Assembly: GCA_044892525.1 (NCBI GenBank)
Contig: CM097885.1
Span: forward strand, 3,412,001-3,476,000
Reading direction: 5' to 3'
From: Schmidtea polychroa
Taxonomy: Eukaryota
DNA length: 64,000 nucleotides
Position numbers and translations under genes: made by a program. This document shows, piece by piece, positions 1,958 through 55,559 of this stretch; position 1 is the first letter of the stretch, and every line of letters begins with the position of its first letter. The notes under the pieces are model-generated. The model made no database searches. It had not been told where the DNA came from and worked only from the letters and a program-made list of their open reading frames with translations.

Positions 1958-2680
1958 TTTTCAAGGTCATATTATTATTTTTTCAAAATATTATTTTCAA
2001 GGTCATTTACTTTTTCAAGGTTATTTATTTTTTCAAGGTCATTCATTTTTTCAAGGTTATTTATTTTTTCAAGGTCATATTTTAAAATTATTCAGCGATA
2101 GCTCATTTTAAAGCCCGATCCAAAACCTTTCGAATGAGCTATAGAAGGTATCATCACCAATATTATTGGCAAAGTTATTAACATTTTACCAAAAATCATT
2201 TTCAAGGTCATATAATTATTAAGTGGTCTGGCGGGCTCCTGGTTTTCGTTTGCCCAAAGGTTATCGTTCCTATCATTTTCTTTCATCGATCGATAGCTTA
2301 ATTTAAAGCGTATTGCAAGACCTTTCGAATGAGCTATTGAAGGTATCATCATCATTATTATTGTCAAAGTTATTAACGTTTTCCCAAGACCATTTTCAAG
2401 GTCATTTATTATTTTCAAGGTCATTTATTTTTACAAGGTCATTTATTTTTTCAAGGTCATTTTTTTTCAAGGTCATTTATTCTTTCAAGGTCATTTATTT
2501 TTTCAAGGTCATTTATTTTTTCAATGTCATTTATTATTTTCAAGGTCATTTTTTTTTCAATATCATTTATTTTTTCAAGGTCATATTTTAAAATATGCAG
2601 AGTTCCCGACGAGAATTATTCAACGATAGCTCATTTTAAAGCCCAATCCAAGACCTTTCGAATGAGCCATATATTATTAA

Positions 2681-2724
<44 letters not shown>

Positions 2725-2916
2725 ACATTATTATTAATATTATTATTATTATTATTATTAATATTAATATATATACTTCTAGTCTATCCGACAAAATATT
2801 CTATCCCCCTATGGGTACTGCTCACGCTCAACAACTCGCAAGGGTATTATTAAACAAAACATACATTTATTTAAACAATAAAATAATTTAACAAAGGTTA
2901 TATTAATACAAAGTCA

Positions 2917-2994
<78 letters not shown>

Positions 2995-3200
2995 TTTATT
3001 ATTATTATTATTATTTTCAAGGTCATATTATTATTTTTCAAAACATTATTATTTTCAAGGTCATATTATTATTTTTCAAATATTATTATTCTCAAGGTCA
3101 TATTATTATTTTCAAGGTCATTTATTTTTCAAGGTCATTTATTTTTTCAAGGTCATTTTTTTTTTCAATGTCATTTATTTTTTCAAGGTCATATTTTAAA
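1958..3200 (+). repeat. Array of TTTTCAAGGTCA motifs plus (ATT)n tracts in the Polinton B terminal region
   Basis: Dozens of TCAAGGTCA copies, mostly at 18-22 bp spacing. Confidence 0.85.
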
Positions 3201-3336
3201 ATATACAGAGTTCCCGACGAGAATTATTCAACGATAGCTCATTTTAAAGACCAATCCAAGACCTTTCGAATGAGCCATATATTATTAACATTATTATTAT
3301 TATTATTATTATTATTCTTATTATTATTATTATTAA

Positions 3337-3371
<35 letters not shown>

Positions 3372-5621
3372 TTATTATTATTAATCTATATACTCCGAGT
3401 TTATCCGACAGGATGTTTTGACCCCCTAAGGGTATTGCTAGCAAGGGTACTGCTCACACTCAACAAGTCACATGGGTACTGGTCACACTCAACAAGTCAC
3501 AGGGTACTGTTCACAAAGTTACTGGTAAAAATATTCAAGACAAAACTTTAACAAAGTAATTATTCTTTAAATATACACTAAAATTTATTAACGCATTCAC
3601 ATTCATCATCTCCACAGTTCATGACATTTTCAACAACATGATCTATACAATCCCTATATACACACGGTTCAGTATCCGTAAATTCCTCCATAGGTTCATC
3701 AATTTCTTGAATGCTTTCCTCATCATCTTGAGTGTTTTCTTCATCTGTTTCATCAAATCCCGAATCTTCACTCTCTGCTACCCAGTCTATATTTAATGCG
3801 TTTGTAACAGATAATATATCCTCCATTTTTACACCAGATATTTCTGCTAATTTTTCCAATAAAATGTTTATTATAAATTCTAAATAATAAATAATTTGGA
3901 AATTAATTAATCATGTTAACCTTTTTCTGTAGTCATTAATAACACTTTAAAACTATATTATAAGTTTGTTTATAGATTTTCTTTGTTAAATTTGCATGTC
4001 ATTTGCATTAATGTTGCAATTAATAAAGAGAAAAAACAAATATGACTAATACATTTATTAAATATAACATTAAAATAGTTGTGAAAGTCTAGCAGACATA
4101 ATTTTCCAAATTGGAGAATACACATCATTATTATCAACTTTATATCAGTAGTGTGTATATATACCCAACCAACACAACCCTCCCAACAAAAACATACCTC
4201 TATTACGCTTAAACCATTAGAAAAACAACCTAAAACCTATTCTTTTATAGTATTTTAACCCCATATTTTAAACAACAACCACCCTTAATATTTAAAGCCT
4301 CAAACTCAAAAGCTTCAAACTAAAAAGAGAATAGAAAAGAAAATGGCATTATGAAAAAGTTAGAGGGCTATTTGGGATAGGGCTATATACACACTACTTT
4401 TGATCGCAATCAAACTCCGGAGTTGATCTTTATCAGATTATTGATTTTAAATTATATAAATTAAAAAATAAATGAAAAATAGTAAAACTGCTCTGAGGGG
4501 ACAGTGGTATTTTTTTTTTTTTCACTGTCCCCTCAACAGTTTTTTTGATCCGGATCATTTCAACCTCTTTCGTTTATCAAATCTCTTCTAATATACAAGC
4601 TGGCCAGACTCATACATCAGAATCAATCCGATAATAGCAGCACACCTTATTATTCGCTTCTCGCTCACGAAGTCGATTTCATCAGTGTTTTAAGCGTGCT
4701 GCTCGAAAGTACAAATGAATTCGAAAGTGAATTCGAAAGAGGTCCGAAAACAACTGAGAAATAAATGTGCACATTATGGAATCGATCCGGGGGTGTTCGA
4801 AAGACAGGTGGCGATAATTACCGGTTCGCCACCATCACCCGTTTCAATAATTTTTTTTTCATATTTATGTTTAAAAATAAAATAATTAATAAAATAAAAT
4901 AAATAAAATAAATAAAATAAATAAAATAAATAAAATAAATAAAATAAATAAAATAAATAAAATAAAATAAAAATAAATAAAATATACAACTACTTTATAA
5001 ATCTAAGATACCCACACCATTTTCAATATTATTTTCAAATTTTTAATATTATTTTATGTTGAAAAAAAAACTAACCACAGTTAGGATTTGAACCACCATC
5101 CATTTGAACCACTGTGCCAGTCTAGCCCACTGCGCTATCTAGGTTTGGATTTTTGTTATTTTTTGACTATAAATAATCGATTCAAGTTCTTTAACTCTTT
5201 CCTGTAATTGTTTCATTTTCTTCAATCTTATATCAGCAACATCTACAGCCTTCATATAAAAATGTCGATACTTTTCATTATCTACCATCAACTCTTTGAT
5301 GTATTCTAATGGTTCTTCTTCTCTTCTTTTCATTCTCTTATGTTTAACTTCATTCAATTCATTTCTCATTCTTTCTTTTAACTCATCCATTTTTATAAAT
5401 ATTTTTTTTATTGGATATATTAATTTTTGGTAGCTTAAGTTAAAACGTTTTTGATCTTAAATTTCCAAGAGTTGCCGTTGACCAATCACCTTAAAAATTT
5501 GTACAAGTACTAAATCGAGTATGCTGATCAATATTTCGTTAAAAAAAAATTTGAAAAAAAATGACCGAAATGGAATTTGAACCCATTGGTATTGGCAATG
5601 CAGTCGAGTGCTATTACCACT
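2674..5621 (+). repeat. Copy 1 of ~2.95 kb direct duplication flanking the LINE (includes a duplicate of the Polinton A left TIR starting at 4147)
   Basis: Near-identical to 13066-16038; identity ends at ...TATTACCACT (5621/16038). Confidence 0.95.
3578..3936 (-). CDS. Small acidic Cys-rich Polinton B protein, predicted two exons (intron 3880-3920); duplicate at ~14020-14378
   Basis: ATG at 3936 and a 41-bp GT..AG phase-1 intron join MTTEK-E-FIINILLEK in frame to the ORF. Confidence 0.55.
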
Positions 5622-10809: not shown

Positions 10810-13066
10810 TCATGAAAGTTTTGAAGCAGTCCTTTTCGTACGCGTTTTCACTGTCGTTGAAATATTTCTCGTTATGGAAGGAACAACAACCTCATCGATG
10901 TCAGTTTTTTGCCTTATTATACTTATAGTTGGCTCCTCGTCTGATTCTATTTCATATCTAGCGGCTTTAATTACATTTCCTGAGAAACCGTCGTCAATGA
11001 TATCTACAGTTGATTGGTCCTCAGTAATTATTTCTTCTGATGCAGGAAGCTGACTATCAACAATCGAAACATTCATTTTATTTGAAAGTTGATTGATTAA
11101 CTGAGTAATATATTTACTCATTTCAGCAGTACAAATTTTCCTGACTTTTAAATAAAGCCGAAATTTAAATTTATTATTTAAAAGGAAGTTCTTTTTGTCA
11201 CGTATGACCCAAAACATCAAACGTTTCGCACGTGTCAAATTAGTGTCAGTGCACTCGATCCCGGAATCAAAGTTGTTTATTTCTTTACTAATTTTGTCCA
11301 GCATTTGCAACTGATCATATCTCCTGGGGAAAGATTTTTCAACTAACTCTAAGAAGCAGTTGATTTCATTAATTGTTTGTGGAGAGATTATATTATGAAT
11401 TTTGTCAATTTCTCCTGACAATTTCCATTGTTTAAATCGAAGCAATCTCTCATGACAACTAGAGTTGAAATACGAAGAAGAAGGAATCAAATTTATCATT
11501 TCGACCCCCCAAATATCAACTTTGTCAAATTCTAGCGAAGAACAAGAATCCAAGTTACTAACAGAGTACATCAGTAGACAATTACGAATATAATTTTCGA
11601 CATATTCACCATATGTCCCGTTTCTTTTATATTTTAAACTATTTTTCAAATGTAAATAATTCAGATAGAATATTAAATCAATAAGTTTTGTAGGAGAGCT
11701 TGTTTGATTCAAAAGGGATTCAAATACACTGTCTTCTCTAGACATGTCAACAAAATTCAGAAGACCAATATTAAACCTTATATCAGGAACATATCCAGGT
11801 TGTATACTATCAGATTTATTAAATATCTCCTTATTTATAAATTTACCCCCCACAAATGAGATTTGTTCAGGAAATCTATTTTGTAATTTTAATTCTTTAA
11901 TTAAATTAATTAATTTTAAAGGATCTTTAGATATATTTTCTACAAACATTATTTCTTGAAGCTCTGGAAATGAATCATACAGATCACGGAGCTGGGAACG
12001 AGATAGTTCTGAACTACTTGTACATGTACTTTGGTCACAGTGATCATGGTCATTCAGAAGATCTAACATTAAAAAATCACCGTCACAATATTTTATCTGT
12101 GATTTTATAAGATAATCAGGGAGCTTATTCTGTTTTTTTAATAATTTTAATACATAGTTTATTTGCACCCCCCTCTGCTTTTCATTTTTAATTCCAGCAG
12201 TTTCAGCAAATTTACTTGATAAAGTAAACAAAAATTTCCTTATGGATATTGAAGCAGAAACAAACTTTGAATCATTTTTGAAAGTTTTAACAATATTTGA
12301 GCCAACAATAAAAACACCATTAGGAGGTCTATTAACAACCAGAGAAGAAGTCAAACTCTTATTTCCTATTTTAATCGAAACACAAACATTATTATTTCGA
12401 TAAAATAAATAATTAAAATTAACGATATTTAAGGGATTTTCAGATTTTTTAATAAGAGATAACTCTTTATTTATGTTATTATATTTATTTATTGATTCTT
12501 TTAATTTTATCAATTTAATAAATTGAGGGAAACATTTAAATAATTGTTGACGCTCCATTTTAGACAAAACCCTATTTAAGTTAAATTCATTATTATTACT
12601 AGAAATAGATTTGTAGTTTTTAACAGTCTTTTTGTAATTATTTGTCGGCTGTATAGGTTCTTTCAATTTATTTTTTAATTCATTAACTAAATTTAATTCA
12701 TTCTTATCTAAATTTTTTTTATAGGAAACTGTCCTATTATTGTCAGCAACAACTATAAGAATTTCAGACAAGTCATCAGAAAAAGAAGTACTTATTGGAG
12801 AACTCTTATCTAAGGTAGGCAAGACTGAAGAACACAATTGATTGTCAGAATTATTATTTGAAATAGAAGAAAAACATAATGGATTTAAGTTAGTGGCTTT
12901 CGAATTAACATAAAAATTATCCAAAGGTACATTTAACTTTGATGCATTATTAAAATCATTAATAGGTTTCAAATTAACATTAAAATTATCTTTATTTAAA
13001 AAATTAGAATTATTAATATCAACATTATTATGAGAAAATTATTAATAAAAAATTATTATTAACATT
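10810..13066 (-). CDS. N-terminal part of the LINE ORF (Asn/Lys-rich, no recognised domain), in frame with the RT ORF across one TGA
   Basis: 720 aa ORF, apparently open to the 5' junction; TCA TGA AGG CAT GTG keeps the frame. Confidence 0.75.
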
Positions 13067-13071
13067 ATTAA

Positions 13072-13115
<44 letters not shown>

Positions 13116-13304
13116 ACATTATTATTAATATTATTATTATTATTATTAATATTAATATATATACTTCTAGTCTATCCGACAAAATATTCTATCCCCCTAT
13201 GGGTACTGCTCACGCTCAACAACTCGCAAGGGTATTATTAAACAAAACATACATTTATTTAAACAATAAAATAATTTAACAAAGGTTATATTAATACAAA
13301 GTCA

Positions 13305-13436
<132 letters not shown>

Positions 13437-13778
13437 TTTATTATTATTATTATTATTTTCAAGGTCATATTATTATTTTTCAAAACATTATTATTTTCAA
13501 GGTCATATTATTATTTTTCAAATATTATTATTCTCAAGGTCATATTATTATTTTCAAGGTCATTTATTTTTCAAGGTCATTTATTTTTTCAAGGTCATTT
13601 TTTTTTTCAATGTCATTTATTTTTTCAAGGTCATATTTTAAAATATACAGAGTTCCCGACGAGAATTATTCAACGATAGCTCATTTTAAAGACCAATCCA
13701 AGACCTTTCGAATGAGCCATATATTATTAACATTATTATTATTATTATTATTATTATTCTTATTATTATTATTATTAA

Positions 13779-13813
<35 letters not shown>

Positions 13814-14588
13814 TTATTATTATTAATCTATATACTCCGAGTTTATCCGACAGGATGTTTTGACCCCCTAAGGGTATTGCTAGCAAGGGTACTGCTCACA
13901 CTCAACAAGTCACATGGGTACTGGTCACACTCAACAAGTCACAGGGTACTGTTCACAAAGTTACTGGTAAAAATATTCAAGACAAAACTTTAACAAAGTA
14001 ATTATTCTTTAAATATACACTAAAATTTATTAACGCATTCACATTCATCATCTCCACAGTTCATGACATTTTCAACAACATGATCTATACAATCCCTATA
14101 TACACACGGTTCAGTATCCGTAAATTCCTCCATAGGTTCATCAATTTCTTGAATGCTTTCCTCATCATCTTGAGTGTTTTCTTCATCTGTTTCATCAAAT
14201 CCCGAATCTTCACTCTCTGCTACCCAGTCTATATTTAATGCGTTTGTAACAGATAATATATCCTCCATTTTTACACCAGATATTTCTGCTAATTTTTCCA
14301 ATAAAAAGTTTATTATAAATTCTAAATAATAAATAATTTGGAAATTAATTAATCATGTTAACCTTTTTCTGTAGTCATTAATAACACTTTAAAACTATAT
14401 TATAAGTTTGTTTATAGATTTTCTTTGTTAAATTTGCATGTCATTTGCATTAATGTTGCAATTAATAAAGAGAAAAAACAAATATGACTAATACATTTAT
14501 TAAATATAACATTAAAATAGTTGTGAAAGTCTAGCAGACATAATTTTCCAAATTGGAGAATACACATCATTATTATCAACTTTATATC

Positions 14589-15581
14589 AGTAGTGTGTAT
14601 ATATACCCAACCAACACAACCCTCCCAACAAAAACATACCTCTATTACGCTTAAACCATTAGAAAAACAACCTAAAACCTATGCTTTTATAGTATTTTAA
14701 CCCCATATTTTAAACAACAACCACCCTTAATCTTTAAAGCCTCAAACTCAAAAGCTTCAAACTAAAAAGAGAATAGAAAAGAAAATGGCATTATGAAAAA
14801 GTTAGAGGGCTATTTGGGATAGGGCTATATACACACTACTTTTGATCGCAATCAAACTCCGGAGTTGATCTTTATCAGATTATTGATTTTAAATTATATA
14901 AATTAAAAAATAAATGAAAAATAGTAAAACTGCTCTGAGGGGACAGTGGTATTTTTTTTTTTTTTTCACTGTCCCCTCAACAGTTTTTTTGATCCGGATC
15001 ATTTCAACCTCTTTCGTTTATCAAATCTCTTCTAATATACAAGCTGGCCAGACTCATACATCAGAATCAATCCGATAATAGCAGCACACCTTATTATTCG
15101 CTTCTCGCTCACGAAGTCGATTTCATCAGTGTTTTAAGCGTGCTGCTCGAAAGTACAAATGAATTCGAAAGTGAATTCGAAAGAGGTCCGAAAACAACTG
15201 AGAAATAAATGTGCACATTATGGAATCGATCCGGGGGTGTTCGAAAGACAGGTGGCGATAATTACCGGTTCGCCACCATCACCCGTTTCAATAATTTTTT
15301 TTTCATATTTATGTTTAAAAATAAAATAATTAATAAAATAAAATAAATAAAATAAATAAAATAAATAAAATAAATAAAATAAAATAAAAATAAATAAAAT
15401 ATACAACTACTTTATAAATCTAAGATACCCACACCATTTTCAATATTATTTTCAAATTTTTAATATTATTTTATGTTGAAAAAAAAACTAACCACAGTTA
15501 GGATTTGAACCACCATCCATTTGAACCACTGTGCCAGTCTAGCCCACTGCGCTATCTAGGTTTGGATTTTTGTTATTTTTT
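14589..15581 (+). repeat. Left TIR of Polinton A
   Basis: Inverted match to 28664-29669. Confidence 0.95.
15488..15561 (-). ncRNA. tRNA-like Pol III cassette 1 (in TIR; copies at 28684-28757 + and ~5071-5144 -)
   Basis: A box TAGCGCAGTGG at +8, B box GGTTCAAATCC, long T run terminator. Confidence 0.6.
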
Positions 15582-15807
15582 GACTATAAATAATCGATTC
15601 AAGTTCTTTAACTCTTTCCTGTAATTGTTTCATTTTCTTCAATCTTATATCAGCAACATCTACAGCCTTCATATAAAAATGTCGATACTTTTCATTATCT
15701 ACCATCAACTCTTTGATGTATTCTAATGGTTCTTCTTCTCTTCTTTTCATTCTCTTATGTTTAACTTCATTCAATTCATTTCTCATTCTTTCTTTTAACT
15801 CATCCAT
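15556..15807 (-). CDS. Small coiled-coil protein of Polinton A (duplicate 5139-5390)
   Basis: 83 aa ATG ORF, charged helical sequence, AAAA-ATG context like other genes of the element. Confidence 0.55.
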   Translation of the reverse strand: MDELKERMRNELNEVKHKRMKRREEEPLEYIKELMVDNEKYRHFYMKAVDVADIRLKKMKQLQERVKELESIIYSQKITKIQT

Positions 15808-15978
15808 TTTTATAAATATTTTTTTTATTGGATATATTAATTTTTGGTAGCTTAAGTTAAAACGTTTTTGATCTTAAATTTCCAAGAGTTGCCGTTGACC
15901 AATCACCTTAAAAATTTGTACAAGTACTAAATCGAGTATGCTGATCAATATTTCGTTAAAAAAAAATTTGAAAAAAAA

Positions 15979-16051
15979 TGACCGAAATGGAATTTGAACC
16001 CATTGGTATTGGCAATGCAGTCGAGTGCTATTACCACTAAGCTATTAGAGC
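15979..16051 (-). ncRNA. tRNA-like Pol III cassette 2 (resembles tRNA-Cys GCA); LINE target
   Basis: GCTCTAA TAGCTTAGTGGTAATAGC ACTCGACTGCA...ATGGGTTCAAATTCCAT...T8. D and T stems pair; acceptor and anticodon stems do not. Confidence 0.65.
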
Positions 16052-16221
16052 TATACTCAATATAAAATAAGTTGTTAATGTGTGACAATTTATTGATGAA
16101 ATTAATAATTAATTATTCATTTTCTCGACAACTACCACTCAGATCGATCTGAAAATTTAAATATATACTTAAATCAGTACGCTGAATCAGATTCCGTTGA
16201 AAAAAAAATATCGAAAAAAAT

Positions 16222-16295
16222 TGACCAAAATCGAAAATTGAACCCGGTACTCCCGGTGATAAAATTGAAGCCTATTCCCACTCCGCTATAATGGC
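16222..16295 (-). ncRNA. tRNA-like Pol III cassette 3
   Basis: A box TAGCGGAGTGG at +8, B-box-like GGGTTCAATT, T7. 3' flank is homologous to that of cassette 2. Confidence 0.55.
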
Positions 16296-16352
16296 TTAAT
16301 CCTAATGCCTTAATTAATTCTATTGTGTGTGTGTAAATTTTAATATATAAAA

Positions 16353-17660
16353 ATGAATAATATAAATCTTAAAATTCAAGAAAAAAATAAATTAAATCTT
16401 GATTATAATAAAGAATTTACTCATGAAATCAAAAGAAATGATGTACTTAAAATCTCCCCAACTTCAGGATCTATTGCAAACTTAAATCGTAGAGGTGATA
16501 TAGTTTTTCAATCTCTTCAAACATCAAACCTTATAGATATTTGTAATGCCAAATTATATTATAAAATCGAATTAGAAATTGAAGCAAACAAAGATATAAC
16601 CCTAGAAAATAATTTCTTTCCAAATTTATTCTCCAACATGAGATTAAAACTAGGATCATCAGAAATTGAAACTGTTTTACATCCGGGGGTATATTCTACA
16701 ATGTTAAATTTTATTTTGACTGGTTGTGATTATAAAAATGAATATGGTGAATTAACAGGTTGAATTCCTGATGTTAATAAAGGAGATTTAGATAAAGCTG
16801 GTTTAGATATAAATTATGGTTACTATAAAAGAGCTGAACTTTATAAATCTAAAAAATTTGAAGGTTATTTTGAATTAAAACACTTATTTGAATTCATTCA
16901 AAACTATAACCGTATACTTCATAATGTTTTTATAGAATTTGTTTGTAATAGAGTAGAAGGTGATAAAAGATTGTTCTATGGAGCTGCAGATACAACAGCT
17001 AAATTAAAAATATCAACACTTGAATTGCATATACCTGAATGGACATTAAATCCACATTCCGAAATCAAACTCCTTGAAAGATTAAATTCCAACAAGTCTA
17101 TAAATGTAAATTATTTAAATAGAATCTGTAGTGAATTTAGTATGACAGAGGGTTCAAAATATTCTATAAAGGTAGCAAATTTAGCATACCGACCGAGATA
17201 TATCTTGATTGGATTCAAAGAAGTAGATTCATCTTTCCAAAAAAATAACAACTTGTTTATTCAAAAGATTGGAGTTGATAATTTAAAAACAATCCAAATT
17301 CAATTAAATAGTTCTTATTATCCAATAAATAGAATGGAATTTAATATTGAAAATAATGAAAACATATTCCCATATCTAAATTATATTGAAACATGTTATG
17401 ATTTCAAAGTTGAACCGCAATTAAGTTTAGAAGATTTCAAAAATTTATATTCTATATTTTGTATAAATGTTTCAGACCAAGATGATCGCCTAGCCATAAA
17501 TAATGTTGATGTTACACTTCATATAACAAAGGATTCTAATTTTAAAGCTAAAGTATATACATTAATATTAGAAGAAAAGAAAATAGAAATGAAATTATAT
17601 GGTGGAAGATTTCAATATTCGAAAATGTTAGAAGAGATTCTTAATATTTTAACATTTTAA
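16353..17660 (+). pseudogene. Major capsid protein (hexon-like double jelly roll), one in-frame TGA at 16761
   Basis: The two ORFs are in one frame, ~435 codons. NLN..G.I.F, NNFFP.LF, PRYILIGF and YP...F motifs are typical of Polinton MCP. Confidence 0.8.
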
Positions 17661-17661
17661 A

Positions 17662-19040
17662 ATGTCTCTCTATTGGAGATGTGAAAGTTGTAATTGTCAA
17701 GTTACAAGACATCATAAAGCAAGTCATCTAAAAACTAAAAAACATATAGGAGGCGACATGATTCCACGAGCCGGAGGCGACCTACAATCTTCAAAACCAA
17801 CATCTTCAATATTAAAACCTTTTACTACAGAAAAATATCCAGGTGAAAGACATTTATTTAAACACAACTATACCGGACCAGGAACAAGATTAGATATTAG
17901 ATTAGATGAAAATAATAATCCTAAACAAGGAGAAGAACCAATAAATAGAATTGATCAAGCAGCTTTAAAACATGATATTGCTTACAATTCAACAAATCTT
18001 AGAGATAGAAATGTTGCAGATGTGAATTTAATACATGATTTAAATAATATACAAAATCCATCAACTCAAGAAAAGATTCAAAGAGCTCTAGTTAAATTAG
18101 CAATGAAAGGTAAGATTTTCATAGGTGCTAGTTTACCAAGGATGGCAAAAGATGTTGCTAATAAAAAGATTATTGAACAAGCAGATGCTGAAAGATCCCT
18201 CGAGAATATATCCAAGACTAGTTTATTAACCCCAACAGAATCACAAATAAAATATGCCAACGAATTACACCATGAATTTAGAAAAAATAAAAAATATTTA
18301 AAAGTTCAAGTACATGAAAAAGGTCAAACATGGTCTGCAGATTTAGTCTTTATGCCAACCAAATCATCAGACCCTGAAAAATAAAAAATAATTTTAACTG
18401 TAATAGATTTATATACAAGATTTGCCTTTGCAAGGTGTTTAGAAAATAAAACAGGATATTCCATTACAGAAGCATTTGAAAATATATTTGAAGAACATCA
18501 AAGAATTCCAAAATATTTATGGAGTGATAAAGGAACAGAATTTTATAACAAAGTTTTTACAAAGTTTTTAAATGAAAATGACATTAAATTATATTCAACA
18601 GAAAACGAAGGAAAAGCAGTCGTAGTTGAAAGATTAAATAGAACATTAAAAAATAAATGTGAAAATATTTTACGGCTATTGGAAAACAAAAATGGAACAA
18701 TGAATTGTTACAAAAGATTGTAAATGAATATAATAATGATGTACATAGTTCTATAAAATCAACACCTTTAAATGCTTCCATAAATCCTGAAACCATTAAA
18801 GTGGTAAATATTGAAAATGATGTTATTGAAAAACCAAAGTTTAAAATTGGTGACCGAGTAAGAATATTTAAATATTAAAATAAATTTGAAAAAGGATTCA
18901 CAGCAAAATGGACAAATGAAATTTTTATTATAAATAAAATAAATTATACAACTCCAATAACATATAGCATCATTGATTTAAATAATGAAAAAATATTAGG
19001 TAGATTTTATAATAATGAGTTACAGAAAACAGATTTCTAA
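17662..19040 (+). pseudogene. Zn finger + parvovirus-type PLA2 + retroviral-like integrase; stops at 18382 and ~18876, frameshift ~18670
   Basis: HNYTGPGT..ID.AA..HDIAY; ELH, WSADL, ILTVIDLYTRF, SDKGTEFYN, VERLNRTLK, FKIGDRVRI, WT.EIF. Confidence 0.9.
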
Positions 19041-19845
19041 AATAAACTTTTCCATATTTCAGCTTCTTCTCTATCCAAATAAATATAATTATATTTTTCT
19101 CTCCAATGATTATCAACAAACATATCAAACATATTCTTATCGGGTTCAACATTTGAAAATAAATCATTATAAATCATATTCTTATCACGTCTATCTAATT
19201 TAAAAAATATATAAAACAATTTGAATTATTTCTTATAGAGTTTTTATCTAAAGCATAATAAGTTTGAGATATATAAATAACATTACAATTATTATGTCTT
19301 CCTCTTGTAAAGTAACTCTTTTGAATCTCTTGATTTTTCATGTTGACAGCATCATCAAATATAACTAGATTCTTTTTATCTTTAGGAAGTAAATCACAAT
19401 GTAAAACATCTTCAGGTTTATTAGAGAATAAAACTTGAATTGCCTCCTGCCCTTCTTCACAAATATAATCATTTTTATTATTAATATCTGATTCTAAAAT
19501 CTTTTCCTTATACCAATCAACCATATCACAAGGATGAAAAACTTCTTCAGGACATCTATGTTGATTTTTAAAAATATCAATTATAGCTTTTTTAGTTAAT
19601 TTATTTTCAAATCCACATTTCAAAAGTTGTAATTCTGGTTGATTTATGGTTGTAGAATAAAAGATTAAATTATTATAATCTAAAAAACCATCTTCAAGTA
19701 ACATTTTCAAAACAAGTACATTCTTTCCACATCCAGAAGATCCAACAATTAATAATCTAAAATTATCAGGAAATAATTTATTATTAAATTTAGATTTATG
19801 TCTATTTAAAATTAGTTTCCAAATTATTGGACTTCGTACATCCAT
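19037..19845 (-). pseudogene. A32/FtsK-like packaging ATPase, frameshift near 19200
   Basis: GSSGCGK Walker A, LVIFDD Walker B, RGRHNN..IYISQ, IRNN. Confidence 0.9.
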
Positions 19846-19860
19846 TTTATTTATTATAAA

Positions 19861-20472
19861 ATGACCTCGAAGAGTTCCTCTACTGAAGAATCTTTGCAAG
19901 AATTAATAAATTCAAATAAAAATAAATCAGTAGTAATTGATGGTAAAAAATATTTTATTGGAAAACATGTAAAAGAACAAGTTATAGCGAAGCTGAAGGG
20001 CTCTTCGACTAAAGAAGGCGGCATTCTTCCATTAGCTGCTTTAATACCTGCAATCATTGCTGGTTTATCAGGTGCTGCTGGAATAGCTGGAGGAATTGCA
20101 ACTACAGTTCAAAAAGCTAAAGAATCTCAAAAGACAGACCTAGAAAAAGAAAAATTACAAACTGAAATCGAGAAAATGAAGAAGGTAGGGCAAGCTAAGG
20201 GAAAAAGCCTCTATCTTAATCCATATGAGGGGACTCTGTCTGAAGGTCAAAAGTCTCAGGGGACTCTGTCCAAGGGAAAGGGTCTCTATCTTGATCCTTA
20301 TAAAGGTAGAGGTTTAAATGATTTTTTTAAAAATCAAATTTCTACATCTGAATCTTTATCTTCAAAAGATAAAGATGATTTTAAAAAAATATGTAAATCT
20401 TTAAAGAATGGATGCCTTTGTAAAACTAAAAATGGTAAAGGTTTATACTTGAAGCCCTTCGAACCCCATTGA
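19861..20472 (+). CDS. Virion core protein with adenovirus pX-like GG|ILP hydrophobic segment
   Basis: KEGGILPLAALIPAIIAGL; repeated G-K-G-LYL putative protease sites. Confidence 0.7.
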   Translation: MTSKSSSTEESLQELINSNKNKSVVIDGKKYFIGKHVKEQVIAKLKGSSTKEGGILPLAALIPAIIAGLSGAAGIAGGIATTVQKAKESQKTDLEKEKLQTEIEKMKKVGQAKGKSLYLNPYEGTLSEGQKSQGTLSKGKGLYLDPYKGRGLNDFFKNQISTSESLSSKDKDDFKKICKSLKNGCLCKTKNGKGLYLKPFEPH

Positions 20473-20494
20473 TACCATTTTTAATACCATAAAA

Positions 20495-21436
20495 ATGGTA
20501 TATGAAGAAAGATTAGCACTTTTAAAAAAATTACAATCTGAACAAGATAAATATAATAAAAAAGATACAACTCAACATGCTGAATCTATAATATTAAATG
20601 AGGTAATAACACAACAACAGGGGCCAACAATTAAAACTATAGAGGGACTTAAAACTATAGAAGCTCCTCTAACCCCTGAACTTAAAGCTATAGAACCTTC
20701 TAAAAAGGAATTATCAAGATTAATGGGTTTAAGAAAACGTAGAAATACTATTGATTTAGAAGAAGATGAATTTCTTTCAAGATTAACACCTCATAAGACT
20801 CCAATTAATTTTAAAATTAATACATCACTAGCTCCATCAATTATACCTACTATAGGTTATGATCCTAGAGGTTTTCAAACAATAACAATTAATAATCAAA
20901 AATTTTATATATATTTAAATTCAAAAAATAATCCAGCGATTATTTCAACAAATACTTTTATGAATAGAGAGCGTGTAGACATTGAACTTTCAGATGGTTT
21001 TCATGGATTAATTTCTGGATATCTTCCAGATGATGTTAAGAAAGAAGAAATTGATAAATATTTAAACTTAATAAAATTAATACATGGTAGTTCTAAAGCA
21101 AAACATATTCAAGATTTAAAGAATTATTTAAATAAAAATGAAAGGGGTTATGTTGTTACAGAGGGTAAGGGGATGCATGTGGCTACAGTTCAAAAAGCTA
21201 AAGAATCTCAAAAGACAGACCTAGAAAAAGAAAAATTACAAACTGAAATCGAGAAAATGAAGAAGGGGATGCATGTGGCTGCAAACCCAATCAATCTTTT
21301 TATTGAATTAAGAAAACTATTAGCAGCTAAAAAAGCAGGACATAATAATTTAGATTCTGATATTTTAAAGATTTCTAAAGATTTGTTAAAACAAGGAATA
21401 ATTTCAAAAGATAAATTTAATAAGTATATAAAATGA
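20495..21436 (+). CDS. Polinton conserved hypothetical (core/PZ-like) protein
   Basis: 313 aa; C-terminal L..L.AAKKAGHNN...I...L...GII motif common in Polintons. Confidence 0.7.
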   Translation: MVYEERLALLKKLQSEQDKYNKKDTTQHAESIILNEVITQQQGPTIKTIEGLKTIEAPLTPELKAIEPSKKELSRLMGLRKRRNTIDLEEDEFLSRLTPHKTPINFKINTSLAPSIIPTIGYDPRGFQTITINNQKFYIYLNSKNNPAIISTNTFMNRERVDIELSDGFHGLISGYLPDDVKKEEIDKYLNLIKLIHGSSKAKHIQDLKNYLNKNERGYVVTEGKGMHVATVQKAKESQKTDLEKEKLQTEIEKMKKGMHVAANPINLFIELRKLLAAKKAGHNNLDSDILKISKDLLKQGIISKDKFNKYIK

Positions 21437-21918
21437 CTCCTTCAATATTAGATTTTTTAAAAACATTTGGAATAAATGCAAAAACAAATTTTGATTTAAA
21501 AGATTATGCAGATTATTTAAATTTAAAAATAAAAATATTAATGAATAATGAATTGAAAGGTCCGAAGGTCAAAGGTCAAAGGGTCACTCCAAAGAATATA
21601 ATAATCAATTATCAAAATTCAAATGAAAAAGGATCTCATTGGGTTTGTATATATATGGACGAAGTCCCAATCTACTTTGATTCTTTTGGGATTAAACCCA
21701 CTAAAGAAGTTGAAGACTATCTGTCCGGAGTAAGCTCAAAGAGAGACTATACTTTTAATTCTTTACAAGTTCAACCTAATAATACTAAAATATGTGGTAT
21801 TTTAAGCTTATATGTTCTGTATAGATTGAATAAATCTCAAGGGACTCTGTCCAAAGGGGACTACTGTTTCACTTCCTTAATCCAAGAAATTTATAATGAT
21901 TTAAAATCTCTACTATAA
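21433..21918 (+). CDS. Adenain-like cysteine protease
   Basis: GSHWV, YFDSFG, Q..N..ICG. Confidence 0.92.
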   Translation: MTPSILDFLKTFGINAKTNFDLKDYADYLNLKIKILMNNELKGPKVKGQRVTPKNIIINYQNSNEKGSHWVCIYMDEVPIYFDSFGIKPTKEVEDYLSGVSSKRDYTFNSLQVQPNNTKICGILSLYVLYRLNKSQGTLSKGDYCFTSLIQEIYNDLKSLL

Positions 21919-21921
21919 GAA

Positions 21922-22659
21922 ATGGAAGATAATTTAAAAAAAATGGTAAACATAATGTCAGATAAATATTCAAGAACTTTATCTAGAAATTCAAAAGAAT
22001 CAGACTTTACTATAAATTTTGAAGATTCAATAAAATTAGATCAAAATTTAAATTATGAATTAGGTCTATTATGGTTTTGTGCTTATAATACTATTTTTAA
22101 TGTAACTAAAGATATTAACACATTTAGTTAGGTAAGCCCCCCAAAAACGGAGTATAACATAATAATAATAGAACCCGGGGCTTATGAGATAAAAGATTTA
22201 AATAATATACTTTCTAAAAAAACAAATGGAGCTATTGAAATTAAAATAGATTTACCAACTTCAAAATGTATAATGACTTTAAAGAATATAGGACTTAGGT
22301 TTCAAAATAATAGTTTCTTTAGAACAATTTTAGGATTTACACAAAACCATTATACCACACCTGAAGTTACATCAGAAAATATTATAAAAATAATAAATAC
22401 AAATACAATAAATATTCATTGCGATTGTATAACAGGTTCTTATAATAATGGTAAACAAAGTAATATTTTATATTCCTTTCCCTCAAACACAGTTCCTATG
22501 GGATATAAAATAGTTGAAAGAATGAATCCTCCAAATTATTTACCTTTATGTAGAAAATATATAATGGATATTAATTTTAAAATTCTTAATCAAGAAGGAG
22601 AATTGATTGATTTTAATGGAGAAGAGATTTCAATGTATTTACATTTGAAACAGGTTTGA
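21922..22659 (+). pseudogene. Minor capsid protein (penton), one in-frame TAG at 22129
   Basis: SDFTI.F...I.L, PGAYEI..LN, LGF, IHCD.I.GSY.NG, IDFNGE motifs. Confidence 0.85.
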
Positions 22660-22683
22660 AGATTCATTTTAAATTATTAATAA

Positions 22684-23661
22684 ATGAGTTCTTATATTCC
22701 TTGTAATAGAGGTGGTGGAACAATAAAAACAGGGTTTAATACAGAAGAAATATTAACTTTAACAGAAAATAAATATATTAATGAAAGAGGTGATTCAATG
22801 AAGGGAGATTTAAATTTAAATGGACACAAGATAAAAGATTTATCTTTACCAATTGATGAAGGTGATGCTGCTAATAAAAATTATACTGATTTAACAACAA
22901 CAAGAATTGAAAGTTCATTAACAACAAAAATTGATTCAATGGAATCAAAGCTTAATAATATCGAACAACGATTTAATGATAAATTTGACAAGTTACAAAG
23001 TCTGTTAACTGAACAAGTTGTAAAGTTAAATACTAGTATATTAAATTCTAAAGATAAACAAATTATGAATACTAAATTTATTACAATATATAATATAATA
23101 AATGAGATGATTACATCATTTAATAAAAGACTTTCAAATTTAGAATCTCATACAACACACATTAACACCACACATAGTATTAGAAAAAGAGCTGCTGAAT
23201 TAGAACAGAATAGAACATTATTACCCCATACATATAAACATTTTATAGAACCAACTTTAATAACAACAAATAGTAAAGAATGGAGTGTTTTTATGGTTGT
23301 AAAGATTATTGATCCTTATTTCTTTTTATTTGATGATGATAATGAAAGAATGAAATGGTTTGTGAAATGTGATTATAATAGTAAGTTTGAAAAGGGTGAT
23401 GTTATAATAAGTGGTTATGATTTAACACATGGATATTGGCATGATAAAACTGATTCACATAAAACACATAAAGTTAAAAGTAAGAATATTATTTTTAAAA
23501 GCACACTTGTACAATATATAGATTTAATATTTTATGAAAAAAAGGTTGATGTTGATGAAGTTCGTAAAGCATTGATGGAATTGTATAAAGACATTCTCTC
23601 AACAAGAGTCTCTTATGATATCCGAGTATTGGTACCAGATAATAAAATCTTATTTTTTTAA
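22684..23661 (+). CDS. Fibre/spike-like protein
   Basis: GDSMKGDLNL..HKI.DL..P....DAANKNY.D fibre-type motif followed by coiled coil. Confidence 0.55.
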   Translation: MSSYIPCNRGGGTIKTGFNTEEILTLTENKYINERGDSMKGDLNLNGHKIKDLSLPIDEGDAANKNYTDLTTTRIESSLTTKIDSMESKLNNIEQRFNDKFDKLQSLLTEQVVKLNTSILNSKDKQIMNTKFITIYNIINEMITSFNKRLSNLESHTTHINTTHSIRKRAAELEQNRTLLPHTYKHFIEPTLITTNSKEWSVFMVVKIIDPYFFLFDDDNERMKWFVKCDYNSKFEKGDVIISGYDLTHGYWHDKTDSHKTHKVKSKNIIFKSTLVQYIDLIFYEKKVDVDEVRKALMELYKDILSTRVSYDIRVLVPDNKILFF

Positions 23662-23669
23662 TTATTAAA

Positions 23670-24269
23670 ATGGAAGAAGTAAGAGAAGAAAATGTTTACC
23701 CAGAATTGTCATCAGGATATTATTCCCCCAAACCTTCGGGACCTTCAGCTCCCACAGAACTTGAAATTATGAGAGTGAAAGAATTTAAATCAGAAACCTT
23801 ACATTTACAAGATTTATTAAAGCATTATAAAAAAATTAAAAATAGATGGAATAAAGGGAATACAGTTTTAAAAGTTATAGGTTATTCTTTAGGATTTGCA
23901 TCTGCAATATTAACAGTTATTTTACCTATAACTTTACCAGTTTTAACACTTGCGCCAGTAATACTTGGAAGTATTTCTGTGGCTGATGGTTTCTTAACTG
24001 AAATAGTTTCATTATCTTATACTTCAAAAAAGAAAAGTTTATATCGTGAAGTTTGTTTGTCAATAGAATTAGGAATCTCTAAATTATTTTTATTTCAATT
24101 AAAAGCTTTGGAAGATGGAATCTTAACTGATGATGAAATAATGAAATCAAATCAAATAATACAAGATATTAAAAATAATATTAATAGATTAAAAAGTGCT
24201 AATGTTATAACTAATGAATATTCTAAAAAAATTAAACGGGAGAAATGGTTAAAGAATTCTTATTTATAA
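23670..24269 (+). CDS. Membrane protein with hydrophobic hairpin and N-terminal YPEL/PSAP motifs
   Basis: 199 aa; helix, two hydrophobic segments, helix. Confidence 0.65.
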   Translation: MEEVREENVYPELSSGYYSPKPSGPSAPTELEIMRVKEFKSETLHLQDLLKHYKKIKNRWNKGNTVLKVIGYSLGFASAILTVILPITLPVLTLAPVILGSISVADGFLTEIVSLSYTSKKKSLYREVCLSIELGISKLFLFQLKALEDGILTDDEIMKSNQIIQDIKNNINRLKSANVITNEYSKKIKREKWLKNSYL

Positions 24270-24347
24270 AATGGGTGTATTTTTAAAAAAGTAGATCAGG
24301 TTGCTATAGTTGCTTAAATTAATTGTCGACATTTCATTATTAAAAAA

Positions 24348-27300
24348 TTAAATATCGTTGAAAGCCAACCTTTGAATCATTAATTTATGATCTTTAAATT
24401 CTTTATCACTTAGACCTTTTATATATTCAGGATCAGTATTAAAATATTTAAGTTCTAAACATATAGGATTAAAAACTTGAGAATATAAAGGCTTCTCGAT
24501 TTCTCTCTCGGGATAAATGATTTCAACATTATAAATATCAAGATCAGTAATTTTTGTATCATATAACTTATTCAACTTTTCTAGATTTTTTATTATCGGT
24601 ATTAAATTATTTCCTATATCATAATTTGATAATGATACTTTTTGAGATTCTATCAAGTGAATATCATGGTTTTCGCTTTTAATCTGATGCACTTCATCAA
24701 TTTTATCTTTATGATTTGGATTCAATGTATCTATATAATCTTGATGAGAAAGATTCTTTGCAACGGATTTCTGTATTCCTTTACATCTGTTATCCTTTAC
24801 AGGTTTTTCTTCTTGTCCCTCTGGAATATAGGATATTTAAATGAAATAATTTCCTCTTTTTCTGGGGTTTTAAATATAATTTCTCGGGTTTTAAATTCAG
24901 GGTTTTCAAATGTTTCGTATGAATATTGTTTAGCACGAATAAATATTCCATTTTCTATAGGAGTAAAAGGTTTTTCATCTTTAAATGAAAATAATTCTCC
25001 AGTTGAATTTATTAAATTTGAAAGTATAGGATTTTCAGCAATATCTCTTTGTAAATCATGAGTTCTTATTGTTAAAAACATTGAATCTGTATCCATTGCA
25101 TGCATTGATATATTAGAACCATATATAGGTTGTAAGATGTTATAATATGTTTCATACATTTGTAATTTTGAAAGTTCTAAAATTGAAAACCCTATAAATA
25201 TTGGTTTGTTGTATGTTTTCTCAAAACTCTTTAGTTCTATTGCAGTAAGACTTTCAGAAAATACTTGTGCGTTTTTAAATGTAGGCTTTCCTAGCATACG
25301 ATTATAACGCTTAATATCTTTGGCAGTATTAGTTAGGAGTTCAATATGAGTATATTTATCAACATTCTCCATTGTCTTCCCAAAGACTGAATTGTTTAAA
25401 AGTTTTTAATTATTATCTTTAAAAAGGTTACCTTCTCTTTTTGCAATGTTTCGACATCTAATGTTCTCCTCGATAAAAGCTTTCATGAATGGCCTCTGTT
25501 TAAATCTTATGACACTATGAACTTTTTTTAATATCATACCTCGTGAAAGATAAAATTGGAGGAGTCTATAGTGACAAAGATAAAACCTTCGATCTGTTTG
25601 ATCACAAAGAAGTTTCATTGTTGGGGGTTTATCTTGTGAGATTTGCCATTCAGAAAGTTCGTTGATATCAATCTTTCTTCTTACAGGAGCTAATGGGAAT
25701 TATCTTGTTCCTGATTTTATATCATCTGGATATAATAAGTCACATTCTACAAAGTAACCTATTGGAGAATCTTTAGGTGTTGAAAGTATTTCTTTTATAA
25801 GTTCTTTTGATGATTCTATTTCAATGAAATCACCCATTGGTAAATATTGAGTCATAATTTCTGAATATAAAGCTGTTGCATCTATATAAAGTATAAATAT
25901 AGGATTTTTCATTGTTTCTAATATTTCTTTTAATTCCTCATTGTTAATTTTTATATATGGATCAGAGGTCTTTGAAAGCATTCTGCTAGTAGTTATTGCA
26001 TTTCTAGCTTTTATTTCTCTATTCCCCATTACTGAAGAGACTCCTCCTCTAATGTTTGTTTTAATTAGATTAAACATATCGAGGTTAGTTAAAAGATCTA
26101 TAATTTTATCAGCTTCTTCTATATTTGAAGTCCAAATGGTATATAATAAAGTATCCCAAGCTAAAGAGGGTGCTGTTATATAATTGTAAGGTTTAAGAAC
26201 AAAAGATTTTGTAAATTCTTCAAAGCAATCTGCTAGAATATAAACATCCAAGGATAAATACATACTTGTATATTCTCCTAAAGTTTTACACTTGAATAAT
26301 TCCCACATTTTATTTGCTCGAGAATATTCTTGATTTGTAATATGATTTTTTTGAAGTTGTGAATAGAAATCTTCTTGGCTAGGAAGACTTGTTTCATTAT
26401 ATCTTTCAAACGAGTCAACATAGTCAGAAGGATATATTCCTTTTGCTAAACATGTAGGATATTCTTCTAGAGGAATATTATTTTTTTCCAAGAATTCTCG
26501 AGTGATTTTAAAATCTTCTGGTTTCATTGTTTTAGCTATTCCATCTAGAGACATTTGAAGAATGTTTAACGAGTCTATAAATTTTAATTTTCCATATTCA
26601 ACTGATTTATATTTTTCTTTTGTTAAGCCGATAACTTTGAAAGAGTTTTTAGCATTTGCTGCTAAATGTTTAATAAATAGATGTATGTCATAACCAAAAA
26701 GATTATGAAATATAACAGGTACAAATTTAGGAGTATGACAATTAAGATTACAATTTTTATGAGCTGCTCCTCGATAATTATTTTCCTTTTTTAAATGATC
26801 ATGATCGAGGACTTTTATATTCGGAGACTCTTCAAATGGTTGTTTACACATCCAACAGTTGGAAGTGTTTTCATATTCTTGTTGTTGTTAATTAGAAATA
26901 TTTTGAGGATAGTTTGTTTTTAATACTTTAAATATTTCATGTTCTAGATCATTTATACTTTTAGTAAAATGATTCAAGACTTCTGTTTCTGAAATTCCTC
27001 GAAATGTATATTCTCTAGATTCTATGAGTTCAGGATAATTACTTTTAAATAATAATTTATAAGCAGATGGTAATTGTTTAGTTTTTTTAACACTATTAGG
27101 TTTATTTCTTTTTCTTAGAAAGGCTTTCATCCTCTCTGGTTTCATCTTCTCTCCTGAGGAGTTCCAGGAATCCATGAGTTTATTTTTTTCTATTATTTTT
27201 AAATATTGTTTAACCAAATCTTGTTTACGATTTATAGATTCAAAGTCCCCATAAAGCACTCCTACTGTTTGTAGTAAATTTGAAAAGTTTTTAAAATACA

Positions 27301-28584
27301 TCTTGGGATTATTAGGCATTTTAATTAAAGCTGGATCATCTTTTTCACAAAATCTTGTATGTTTAATCATAGAGTTTTTAGTTGTTGAATAATGAAGACA
27401 TCTTTTACATGTTCCTCCTCCACTAGTTGGATTCTCTGGTGATGTAAAAGCTTGAAAGTTTTTTATTAAAACATAATGTTGATTATTTTGTTGTTCCAAG
27501 ATTAAAAGATATATCTCCCTAGTGTTATCCTTGGGTTCATTATCTCTAACTTCATAATCTGAAATATAAATTGGAATAATTTCTCTGCTATTAACATGTT
27601 TCCCTTTAACACGTTCATAAATATTAATTTTAAGATTATTTAAACTTTCAAATTTTGGAATGTCTTCTAGTTTCATTGGATGTTTGAATCCTTTGGGAAA
27701 TATTAATTCATTTTCATATTGTTTGTATTTTGAAACTCTTTGAGGGTTTGATTCTTGAGGGTGTAAATGTGCAAGTATTGACCAGACTAAACATTTGTTA
27801 TCATTATTCTGTATGTTTATAACATTTTTAGATTTAAAGGGTGTAGGAATATAAGATTTAGGATTAGGTGGTAATCCTCTCCAATAATCAATCACTAAAG
27901 TTTGGAAAGAGTTGAATACTAAGTTTGAATCTCCTAATTCATTTTCAACTTCTTCTTGTTTTGCTTCTACTGCTTGAATTATTTCTTTGATGGTTTTATC
28001 AAATCCTTTAGTTGAAAATAAATATTTAAAGGGTATTCCAATTTCAACATCTAAAGGTGTTTTGCTTTGATTATAATTTTATATTTTATAACATTATACC
28101 TTGTCGGTTTATAATTTTTTAAAGCTTCAGTGAAAGAATTTTTAATATTTTTTTTATTTTTATTTATATATTCTCCAGGAGTTATAGGTCCATTGATTTC
28201 TAATTGAAATTCATCTACATGATTAAAATCATCCCAGTTATATTTTTCTCTTTCAACATGATCAGGTTCTCCTTCTGAATGACATTCCTCATCGTCAGAA
28301 TTTTGTTTTTTATTTTTACATTCTTTTATATGTTCTAAATAATAGAAATTTACTTTTGTTGAAAAGTTACAGTGAGAACATGTAAATATTTCTCTATTTT
28401 TCCCGATACAATTTTCAAAATGTTTATTATATCCAGAATGTAGAAATCTTCCTTTACATTTAGGACAAACTTTTGAATTTGTATCATTAAGATTGTTTTC
28501 TTTTAATAAATGAGCTTTCGATTTTAAGTGAGAAATTAATCCAGTTTTATTTTTAAAAACTTTATTACAAATATTACAATTCAT
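24348..28584 (-). pseudogene. Protein-primed DNA polymerase B with N-terminal C2H2 fingers; three in-frame stops and at least two frameshifts
   Basis: SYIPTP..IN..NND.KC..WSILA, YGDFES, DHDH, FHNL.GYD, YIDATALY, KLLNNSVFGKT, MDTDS. Confidence 0.95.
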
Positions 28585-28663
28585 TTTTAGAAAAAAATTT
28601 TTTATTGGATATCCTGTTTTGATTTTTTATGTTTTTATATTTATTTTCATAATGTGACAGTAT

Positions 28664-29669
28664 AAAAAATAACAAAAATCCAAACCTAGATAGCGCAGTG
28701 GGCTAGACTGGCACAGTGGTTCAAATGGATGGTGGTTCAAATCCTAACTGTGGTTAGTTTTTTTTTTTTTAAAAATTTGAAAATAATAGTGTGGGTATCT
28801 TAGATTTATATTTTATTTTATTTATTTTTATTTTATTTTATTTTATTTTATTTTATTTTATTTTATTTTATTTTATTTATTTTATTTATTTTATTTATTT
28901 TATTTATTTTATTTATTTTATTTATTTTATTAATTATTTTATTTTTAAACATAAATATGAAAAAAAAATTATTGAAACGGGTGATGGTGGCGAACCGGTA
29001 ATTATCGCCACCAGTCTTTCGAACACCCCCGGATCGATTCCATAATGTGCACATTTATTTCTCAGTTGTTTTCGGACCTCTTTCGAATTCACTTTCGAAT
29101 TCATTTGTACTTTCGAGCAGCACGCTTAAAACACTGATGAAATCGACTTCGTGAGCGAGAAGCGAATAATAAGGTGTGCTGCTATTATCGGATTGATTCT
29201 GATGTATGAGTCTGGCCAGCTTGTATATTAGAAGAGATTTGATAAACGAAAGAGGTTGAAATGATCCGGATCAAAAAAACTGTTGAGGGGACAGTGAAAA
29301 AAAAAATACCACTGTCCCCTCAGAGCAGTTTTACTATTTTTCATTTATTTTTTAATTTATATAATTTAAAATCAATAATCTGATAAAGATCAACTCCGGA
29401 GTTTGATTGCGATCAAAAGTAGTGTGTATATAGCCCTATCCCAAATAGCCCTCTAACTTTTTCATAATGCCATTTTCTTTTCTATTCTCTTTTTAGTTTG
29501 AAGCTTTTGAGTTTGAGGCTTTAAAGATTAAGGGTGGTTGTTGTTTAAAATATGGGGTTAAAATACTATAAAAGCATAGGTTTTAGGTTGTTTTTCTAAT
29601 GGTTTAAGCGTAATAGAGGTATGTTTTTGTTGGGAGGGTTGTGTTGGTTGGGTATATATACACACTACT
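28664..29669 (-). repeat. Right TIR of Polinton A
   Basis: Inverted match to 14589-15581; shares diagnostic bases with copy 2 rather than copy 1 of the duplication. Confidence 0.95.
28981..29052 (+). ncRNA. tRNA-like Pol III cassette 0 (in TIR; minus-strand copies in the left TIRs)
   Basis: A-box-like TGGCGAACCGG at +8, perfect D stem GCGA/TCGC, B-box-like GGATCGATTCC; weak terminator. Confidence 0.45.
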
Positions 29670-55525: not shown

Positions 55526-55559
55526 CTTCACTACCCGAGTCATGACCTCCCATTCACCC

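Follow-up and report, generated by a model that had tools for sequence, protein, structure and literature searches.

The main result of this study is that a Polinton/Maverick element carries, in both of its terminal repeats, a structured gene of about 359 nt headed by an internal promoter derived from tRNA-Asp, which we call U4. The element lies in the 64-kb window (the whole stretch of DNA analysed, 64,000 nucleotides), and U4 is one of four A-box/B-box units near its left end (U1 to U4; Table 1). A first-pass annotation had read these as four comparable RNA genes of about 75 nt and as candidate analogues of adenoviral VA RNAs. That comparability did not survive our analysis, which traced the units to three sources: U1 and U2 are host ribosomal DNA (rDNA) spacer that is absent from sister subfamilies, U3 is a short unit within the terminal repeat that resembles a promoter, and U4, which had been taken for a unit of 72 nt in its own right, heads a much longer RNA gene. 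Two of the four candidate genes are thus removed as host spacer DNA.

Table 1. Features of the Polinton and of its A-box/B-box units; positions are those of the window.
Feature	Position	Strand	Remark
Polinton/Maverick element, 15,081 bp	14589-29669		several genes broken in present copy
Target duplication, 6 bp	14583-14588 and 29670-29675
Left terminal inverted repeat	14589-15581		partner 28664-29669; 92.7% over 1038 columns
Predicted structured Pol III RNA gene headed by U4, ~359 nt	14926-15284	-	start 15284 inferred
U4, tRNA-Asp(GTC)-derived head	15210-15284	-	A-box 15275-15265, B-box 15232-15222
Internal T4 at +91	15191-15194	-	in 33/33 copies
Hairpin A, 12-bp stem, large loop	15082-15147	-
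Hairpin B, ~25 bp, 2x2 loop, G-U-rich, pre-miRNA-sized	15019-15081	-
Hairpin C, 3' terminal stem, A-rich loop, then U-tail	14926-14987	-	z -9.5
U4 RNA gene copy, right terminal repeat, 354 nt	28979-29332	+
U4 RNA gene copy, duplicated left part (2673-5621)	4484-4840	-
U3, 74-nt A/B-box unit in terminal repeat, then T9	15488-15561	-
U3 copy, right terminal repeat	28684-28757	+
U3 copy, duplicated left part	5071-5144
ORF, 83 aa, without Pfam match	15556-15807	-	stop codon overlaps 5' end of U3
Host rDNA intergenic spacer piece, 498 bp	15844-16341		92-96% to L111:3086-4068; one subfamily
U2, tRNA-Cys-derived unit of the spacer's 243-bp subrepeat	15979-16051	-
U1, diverged paralogue of U2	16222-16295	-	74/74 identical to host spacer unit

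The element is a Polinton by its inverted repeats of about 1 kb, its AG...CT ends and its 6-bp target duplication, and the core gene set of integrase, PolB, capsid and ATPase is present, although several of these genes are broken in this copy. Its proteins include a double jelly-roll capsid (PF21738), a PLA2-like protein (PF08398), an A32 ATPase (PF04665) and an rve integrase. The protein-primed PolB is in pieces, one of them 49% identical to a PF03175 protein, and an ORF at 21433-21918, considered as an adenovirus-type cysteine protease, had no Pfam match and no relevant PDB match. The family is large, with 2,140 capsid motif matches in the whole 781-Mb genome; among the scored hits of a genome search, capsid queries 71% and 49% identical recovered only this family and its subfamilies, and no relative was found among viral contigs. 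Other mobile DNA shares the window. PolB pieces of a different Polinton family lie at 551-1609 (matching PF03175) and 54231-55545 and are 96% alike over 382 bp, and an element carrying the 5' domain of SRP RNA has copies at 44336-44842 and 34639-34814 (Rfam SRP, 30.4 bits at locus L110).

The units themselves are well supported as a cluster. The entire window was searched for A-boxes with a B-box 38-50 nt downstream, allowing at most three mismatches in total against consensus patterns. Nine matches were obtained, eight of which are the four units and their copies; there is also a stray match at 17025, without a T-run. The matches of the four units are at 16295, 16051, 15561 and 15282, all on the minus strand, and between 15100 and 16400 the observed four compare with a mean of 0.01 and a maximum of 1 in 300 dinucleotide shuffles. 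Copies of two of them recur in the right terminal repeat on the plus strand (28684 and 28981), hence pointing outward, and further copies lie in the duplicated left part (5144 and 4838). T-runs follow U1 (T7), U2 (T8) and U3 (T9), and U4 has none longer than 3 within 30 nt of its B-box. On the four units, their outward direction and their T-runs the first-pass annotation was accurate, as it was in stating that the units are not working tRNAs, a candidate function that we reject for all four: there is no intact cloverleaf, ARAGORN predicted 0 tRNAs, the Rfam tRNA model matched only U2 and below its cut-off (26.6 bits against 29; 32.4 bits in sibling copies), and acceptor stems pair, including G-U, at only 5/7, 5/7, 4/7 and, for U4, 3/7 positions. 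Boxes at tRNA spacing together with a T-run terminator are features of a Pol III type 2 gene, and judged on sequence there is support for the view that the units carry tRNA-derived promoters of this type.

The interior of the U4 head scores 12.5 against tRNA-Asp(GTC), one of five host tRNA types compared, a value reached by none of 500 shuffles. In this copy the head forms no cloverleaf (its T-stem pairs at 2/5 positions) and refolds into another hairpin, so that release by RNase Z is doubtful. The gene ends with a hairpin followed by T4 and further T-runs; the T4 at +91 is a possible leaky terminator that would yield a short form of about 94 nt. For the gene as a whole the predicted free energy is -132 kcal/mol (z -8.06), a value that none of 100 shuffles equalled, and the minus strand folds better than the other (z -9.6 versus -5.0). 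The predicted fold buries the A-box in a 5' hairpin, places the B-box in a long-range stem and contains hairpins A, B and C. Sliding windows locate the fold signal at 14890-15139, with just one AT-rich window elsewhere at the left end. Hairpin B forms in minus-strand RNA only (z -5.4, versus +1.0 on the opposite strand), its energies as DNA being -2.7 and -0.1 kcal/mol; hairpin C can fold on either of the strands, and also as DNA, and the loop of hairpin A is partly deleted in some subfamilies. U1 was no better than shuffles in the fold test.

Comparison of 35 natural copies delimits the same gene: they align well between the start G and the T-run that follows the last hairpin, and poorly beyond it. 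Identity to the window's gene is 95-97% in 13 copies and drops to 51-73% over the next 200 nt. Among six diverged subfamily copies having the U4 gene, five keep it better than the 5' part of the capsid gene, an argument from conservation that is limited by the possible homogenisation of terminal repeats through conversion. Across 88 confident pairs in 45 copies, variants shared by at least three copies keep pairing in 7 of 9 cases, as against 9 of 33 for less common variants (Fisher p 0.016, with independence overstated since the copies are related), and of seven shared polymorphic pairs five can form only on the strand of the A and B boxes. There are exceptions: two shared variants of hairpin C disrupt pairing on the minus strand and are compatible with it on the plus strand, a common variant disrupts a pair of low confidence within the loop of hairpin A, and the sole common two-sided change falls in hairpin C (13/45 copies). 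Hairpin C may work on either strand or as DNA. Taken as a whole, we consider it highly probable that this is a real RNA gene under selection for structure.

The gene travels with the ends of the Polinton. Its exact head motif has 2,819 matches genome-wide, of which 2,675 (95%) share the same upstream context and 144 lack it; that context is found in 32 of 35 known terminal-repeat copies. Units that were dispersed SINE heads, one of the outcomes named beforehand as refuting the first proposal, would not be expected to look like this, and we reject a tRNA-derived SINE as the identity of U4 on the grounds of its fixed upstream context and its movement with Polinton ends. The U4 gene does resemble such SINEs in joining a tRNA head to an unrelated body with A-runs, but unlike them it is not dispersed on its own. 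Along the first 19 Mb of C1, capsid loci had a head within 2 kb in 50 of 67 cases, at the far end only in 5 and in neither place in 12, and head pairs 10-18 kb apart faced outward 17 times and inward twice. Of 100 heads, 68 tie to a listed capsid motif, and all 10 examined of the other 32 lie in terminal-repeat context. One internally deleted Polinton copy of about 1.9 kb (L106, G000:C1:9865700-9868100) still has its two terminal repeats, together with a pair of U4 RNA genes that face outward.

On the other hand, the gene is not universal. Of ten diverged capsid loci, six carry U4 and four are without units at the capsid end, three of these ending in a short palindromic module and one having other coding sequence upstream. 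In sister subfamilies (L092, L095 and L097; capsid DNA 90-91% identical) the capsid gene is immediately preceded by a terminal palindromic module of about 200 bp, and Pol III units are absent. It follows from the four loci without units and from the 12 of 67 above that the family can exist without the gene. Among 22 metagenomic capsid relatives (25-53%), only six of which have at least 1.3 kb before the capsid match, no unit was found. One metagenomic Polinton (L068, capsid 51% identical) has an intergenic hairpin at 5436-5515 on the minus strand that matches Rfam mir-754 (48.6 bits, E 8e-7, below the cut-off of 84; fold z -9.5) and has no A/B boxes; the mir-754 model gave 0 matches on the present genome in a search flagged as uninformative.

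Public sequencing data offer a weak hint of transcription. We used three runs from two studies that are presumed, though not recorded, to be RNA, with genome copy counts as the yardstick; contigs cannot show start, end, strand or level. Mean contig depth in the respective runs was 9,616, 5,162 and 38 on the U4 gene; the capsid gene had 64, 361 and 9.5, and U1/U2 had the lowest values, 21, 15 and 0.1. The excess of U4 over capsid is thus 149x, 14x and 4x, where copy counts predict about 1.3x. The bin containing U3 was also weakly raised. Such a pile-up on the U4 gene could come from host piRNAs. Depth drops upstream of U4 at a skipped repeat, and this drop was not used; nor was X3, a fourth presumed RNA run from another organism, whose contigs do not cover the U4 gene. 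Near 15001 there are poly-T loose ends of 16-19 letters, longer than the longest natural A-run at that place (14 in 41 copies); as those 41 are a minority of all copies, we claim neither a strand nor a tail from the loose ends. We saw no small RNA processed from the gene; motifs of the U4 gene had no match in eight supplementary files of one planarian small-RNA paper (searched as RNA letters only), and searches for them in papers gave unrelated matches only. We infer that the U4 RNA is probably made by Pol III, and a planarian miRNA may have been annotated from the hairpins of its gene.

U1 and U2 have a different history. They are cargo of one young Polinton subfamily, recently captured as one 498-bp piece of rDNA spacer, and are near-identical to sequence between the 28S and 18S genes of the one rDNA unit compared (spacer L111, 18S beginning at 7127). 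That spacer has three U2-type units in its 243-bp subrepeat (70-71/73 identical to U2), one U1-identical unit and a fifth tRNA-like unit. The U1/U2 region resembles the spacer subrepeats in its 92-96% identity and its 243-bp period and differs from them in lying outside the rDNA array, within a transposon. With their surrounding 145 nt, U1 and U2 are 68% alike; among five host tRNA types tRNA-Cys is nearest to U2, in keeping with the likeness to tRNA-Cys originally noticed in one unit. At a third locus, homology continues beyond the Polinton border into spacer, which makes host-to-element capture the simpler direction. Both units are absent from all 10 more diverged capsid loci examined, L096 has an empty site at the position of the piece, and about 21 of 50 elements carry the spacer piece, judging by spacing. 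U3 and U4 had no match in the spacer copy L111. Each of U1 and U2 is unchanged in 26 of 29 close siblings, which were picked by likeness to the unit stretch itself, and this reflects youth rather than selection. The boxes are indeed kept among siblings, as had been predicted, but in these 29 close relatives box and body vary alike (0.020 versus 0.023), and the comparison does not discriminate.

The host context of these units deserves mention in its own right. The five tRNA-like A/B-box units of spacer L111 (3223-4262, G000:C115) lie about 2.9-3.9 kb before 18S and opposite to rRNA transcription; they are a possible barrier or source of spacer transcripts. Host tRNA genes occur in long tandem arrays (G000:C1:269.25-270.39 Mb, C4:76.66 Mb and small contigs), and a tRNA-Cys motif has 1,029 matches with a 281-bp period in such arrays. 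A NeSL/LIN-like non-LTR retrotransposon with Ulp1 protease and RT (window 5622 to ~12970, minus strand) sits inside U2, with a duplication of about 3 kb (2673-5621 / 13064-16038). Its 3' end always joins the same place in a tRNA A-box (30 loci, L031-L060), namely in tRNA-Asp(GTC) at 24 loci, a tRNA with CCC anticodon at three and U2 at three, of which two are in Polintons and one in spacer-type DNA. Planarian LIN families target tRNA-Arg and tRNA-Glu, and the accessible text of that report does not contain Asp or Gly targets (PMC4640811). We rejected an adaptive role of U2 as a decoy target for the retrotransposon, given that it received 3 of 30 insertions and that sequence likeness explains them.

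U3, a short unit belonging to the terminal repeat, looks like a promoter. Its boxes and T-run are kept across 42 copies while the body varies, it has no stable fold and does no better than shuffles, it is doubled in L096, and it is complete in 5 of 10 diverged capsid loci. No parent tRNA was found for it among five host tRNA types or in the fifth spacer unit. Such a pattern suits a promoter or a TFIIIC site more than a structured RNA.

As for what the U4 gene does, our best reading is a Pol III RNA that would act on host RNA silencing, and we give this an even chance of being right. Host TFIIIC would bind the A and B boxes of U4, and Pol III would transcribe the gene outward. Some transcripts would end in the T4 at +91 and the rest in the T-runs that follow hairpin C. 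Through the long G-U-rich stems of its three hairpins (A, B and C) the longer RNA would engage the small-RNA machinery of the host. It might be processed into small RNAs encoded by the element, or it might be abundant and compete for Dicer, Exportin-5 or Argonaute, and silencing would be eased for a family that host small RNAs repress. Whether the RNA acts through the small-RNA pathway in particular we judge to be evenly balanced. That pathway is favoured by a layout like that of the viral TMERs (a tRNA head and an early stop, followed by long imperfect stems the size of a pre-miRNA), by the Pol III hairpin cassettes in foamy virus terminal repeats and by the fact that Polintons are prime piRNA targets, being among the main piRNA-silenced elements in a planarian according to the available part of one study (PMC8532177). 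A broader proposition is tentative and a good deal less probable: that Polintons encode their own Pol III non-coding RNAs, which feed or jam host silencing as an independent counterpart of VA RNAs and TMERs and helped the family reach about two thousand copies, and that some annotated flatworm microRNAs are Polinton-derived, the mir-754-like hairpin of L068, a related Polinton, being of note in this connection.

Other explanations account for part of these data. Genes for tRNAs can have barrier activity, and the units might act in cis on the DNA, with TFIIIC and Pol III on U3 and U4 (and on the captured U1 and U2) keeping the ends of the element open or blocking heterochromatin, any RNA being a by-product or else aiding replication or packaging at the termini. 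Every unit does lie at the element ends facing outward, U3 keeps its boxes and T-run without any fold and can be doubled, the host retains similar units in its rDNA spacer, and hairpin C folds even as DNA. A barrier, however, needs the boxes only, yet 290 nt downstream of U4 are kept, and G-U-dependent stems such as hairpin B fail as DNA; we consider a cis role unlikely. To the same modest degree we would credit a passenger, that is, a host Pol III RNA gene or an old SINE captured into the terminal repeat and kept alike by expansion and conversion rather than by benefit. The family demonstrably picks up host DNA, another Polinton-type element bears an SRP RNA head (the Rfam match at L110), subfamilies without the U4 gene exist, and some head motifs (144 of 2,819) stand without the upstream context. 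Against this, no Rfam family fits the U4 gene at E up to 10, the examined spacer copy has no match to U4, the shared variants that keep pairing arose among element copies, and conservation stops at the terminator where flanks differ. Least credible, and in our opinion very improbable, is the original proposal of four comparable decoy RNAs of about 75 nt that act on PKR or RNAi as VA-RNA analogues. The boxes and T-runs of U1 to U3 are intact and the U3 bin is weakly raised in the presumed RNA contigs, but U1 and U2 are host spacer DNA of one subfamily with the lowest contig depth (itself weak evidence), U1 and U3 fold no better than shuffles, and U4 is not 75 nt long. PKR is not known outside vertebrates and the host is probably a planarian flatworm, judging by its genome layout and the NeSL/LIN-like retrotransposon beside the element, which makes PKR antagonism unlikely.

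Should an RNA directed at host silencing prove to be the right reading, the Polinton class would contain a non-coding counter-silencing or small-RNA gene, with implications for whether this virus lineage has a repeated need for RNAs of this kind; abundant repeat-derived reads in stranded and small-RNA data may then stem from one Pol III gene. The idea is readily testable in a tractable animal. Within the open-access literature covered, we found no description of a Pol III RNA of a Polinton. In the accessible portion of the adintovirus paper, predicted tRNAs occur only in a legend on other viruses (PMC8502044), and only a small number of virus groups are described as having Pol III RNAs of their own (PMC4378190).

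The idea that the element carries a Pol III RNA comparable to those of viruses fits U4, but neither membership among VA RNAs nor the set of four comparable units held up. As far as the available text on adenovirus VA RNAI/II goes (PMC7589676), these share with U4 the boxes A and B, a proposed tRNA origin, a T4 stop and long stems, and the viruses that carry them are linear DNA viruses of a related class. Unlike VA RNA, which that text puts at about 160 nt, the U4 RNA has 359 nt, unpaired ends without a terminal stem, and its GGGU/ACCC pairing at the 5' end instead of the central domain; the Rfam VA RNA model had no match to the U4 gene at E up to 10, and we reject VA-RNA membership on length, fold and Rfam. 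The host, moreover, probably lacks PKR. Rfam models of 7SL, 7SK, vault, Y and RNase P/MRP RNAs likewise gave no match to the U4 gene, a search that a very diverged member would escape. The pri-/pre-miRNA cassettes of foamy virus and bovine leukemia virus, in the portion of the account available (PMC4378190), are also Pol III hairpin cassettes in integrated elements, those of foamy virus inside the terminal repeats (PMC4378190); U4 differs in belonging to a DNA transposon or virus rather than a retrovirus and in having a recognisable tRNA head. The closest resemblance is to the TMERs of murine gammaherpesvirus 68 (MHV68), for which the passages available describe a tRNA-like head, an early alternative stop and downstream hairpins (PMC4337559, PMC4378190). 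With them the U4 gene shares the A/B-box tRNA-like head, the early alternative Pol III stop, the downstream hairpins, a poly-U end and clustering at genome ends. It departs from them in its degenerate head, which refolds into another hairpin and presents no tRNA fold for RNase Z, in its length of about 359 nt against about 200 nt for a TMER as given there, and in its three hairpins. By prediction, the U4 gene has a TMER-like layout of head, early stop and pre-miRNA-sized hairpins, and the best reading of its RNA is one built like the herpesviral tRNA-miRNA chimeras rather than like adenoviral VA RNA.
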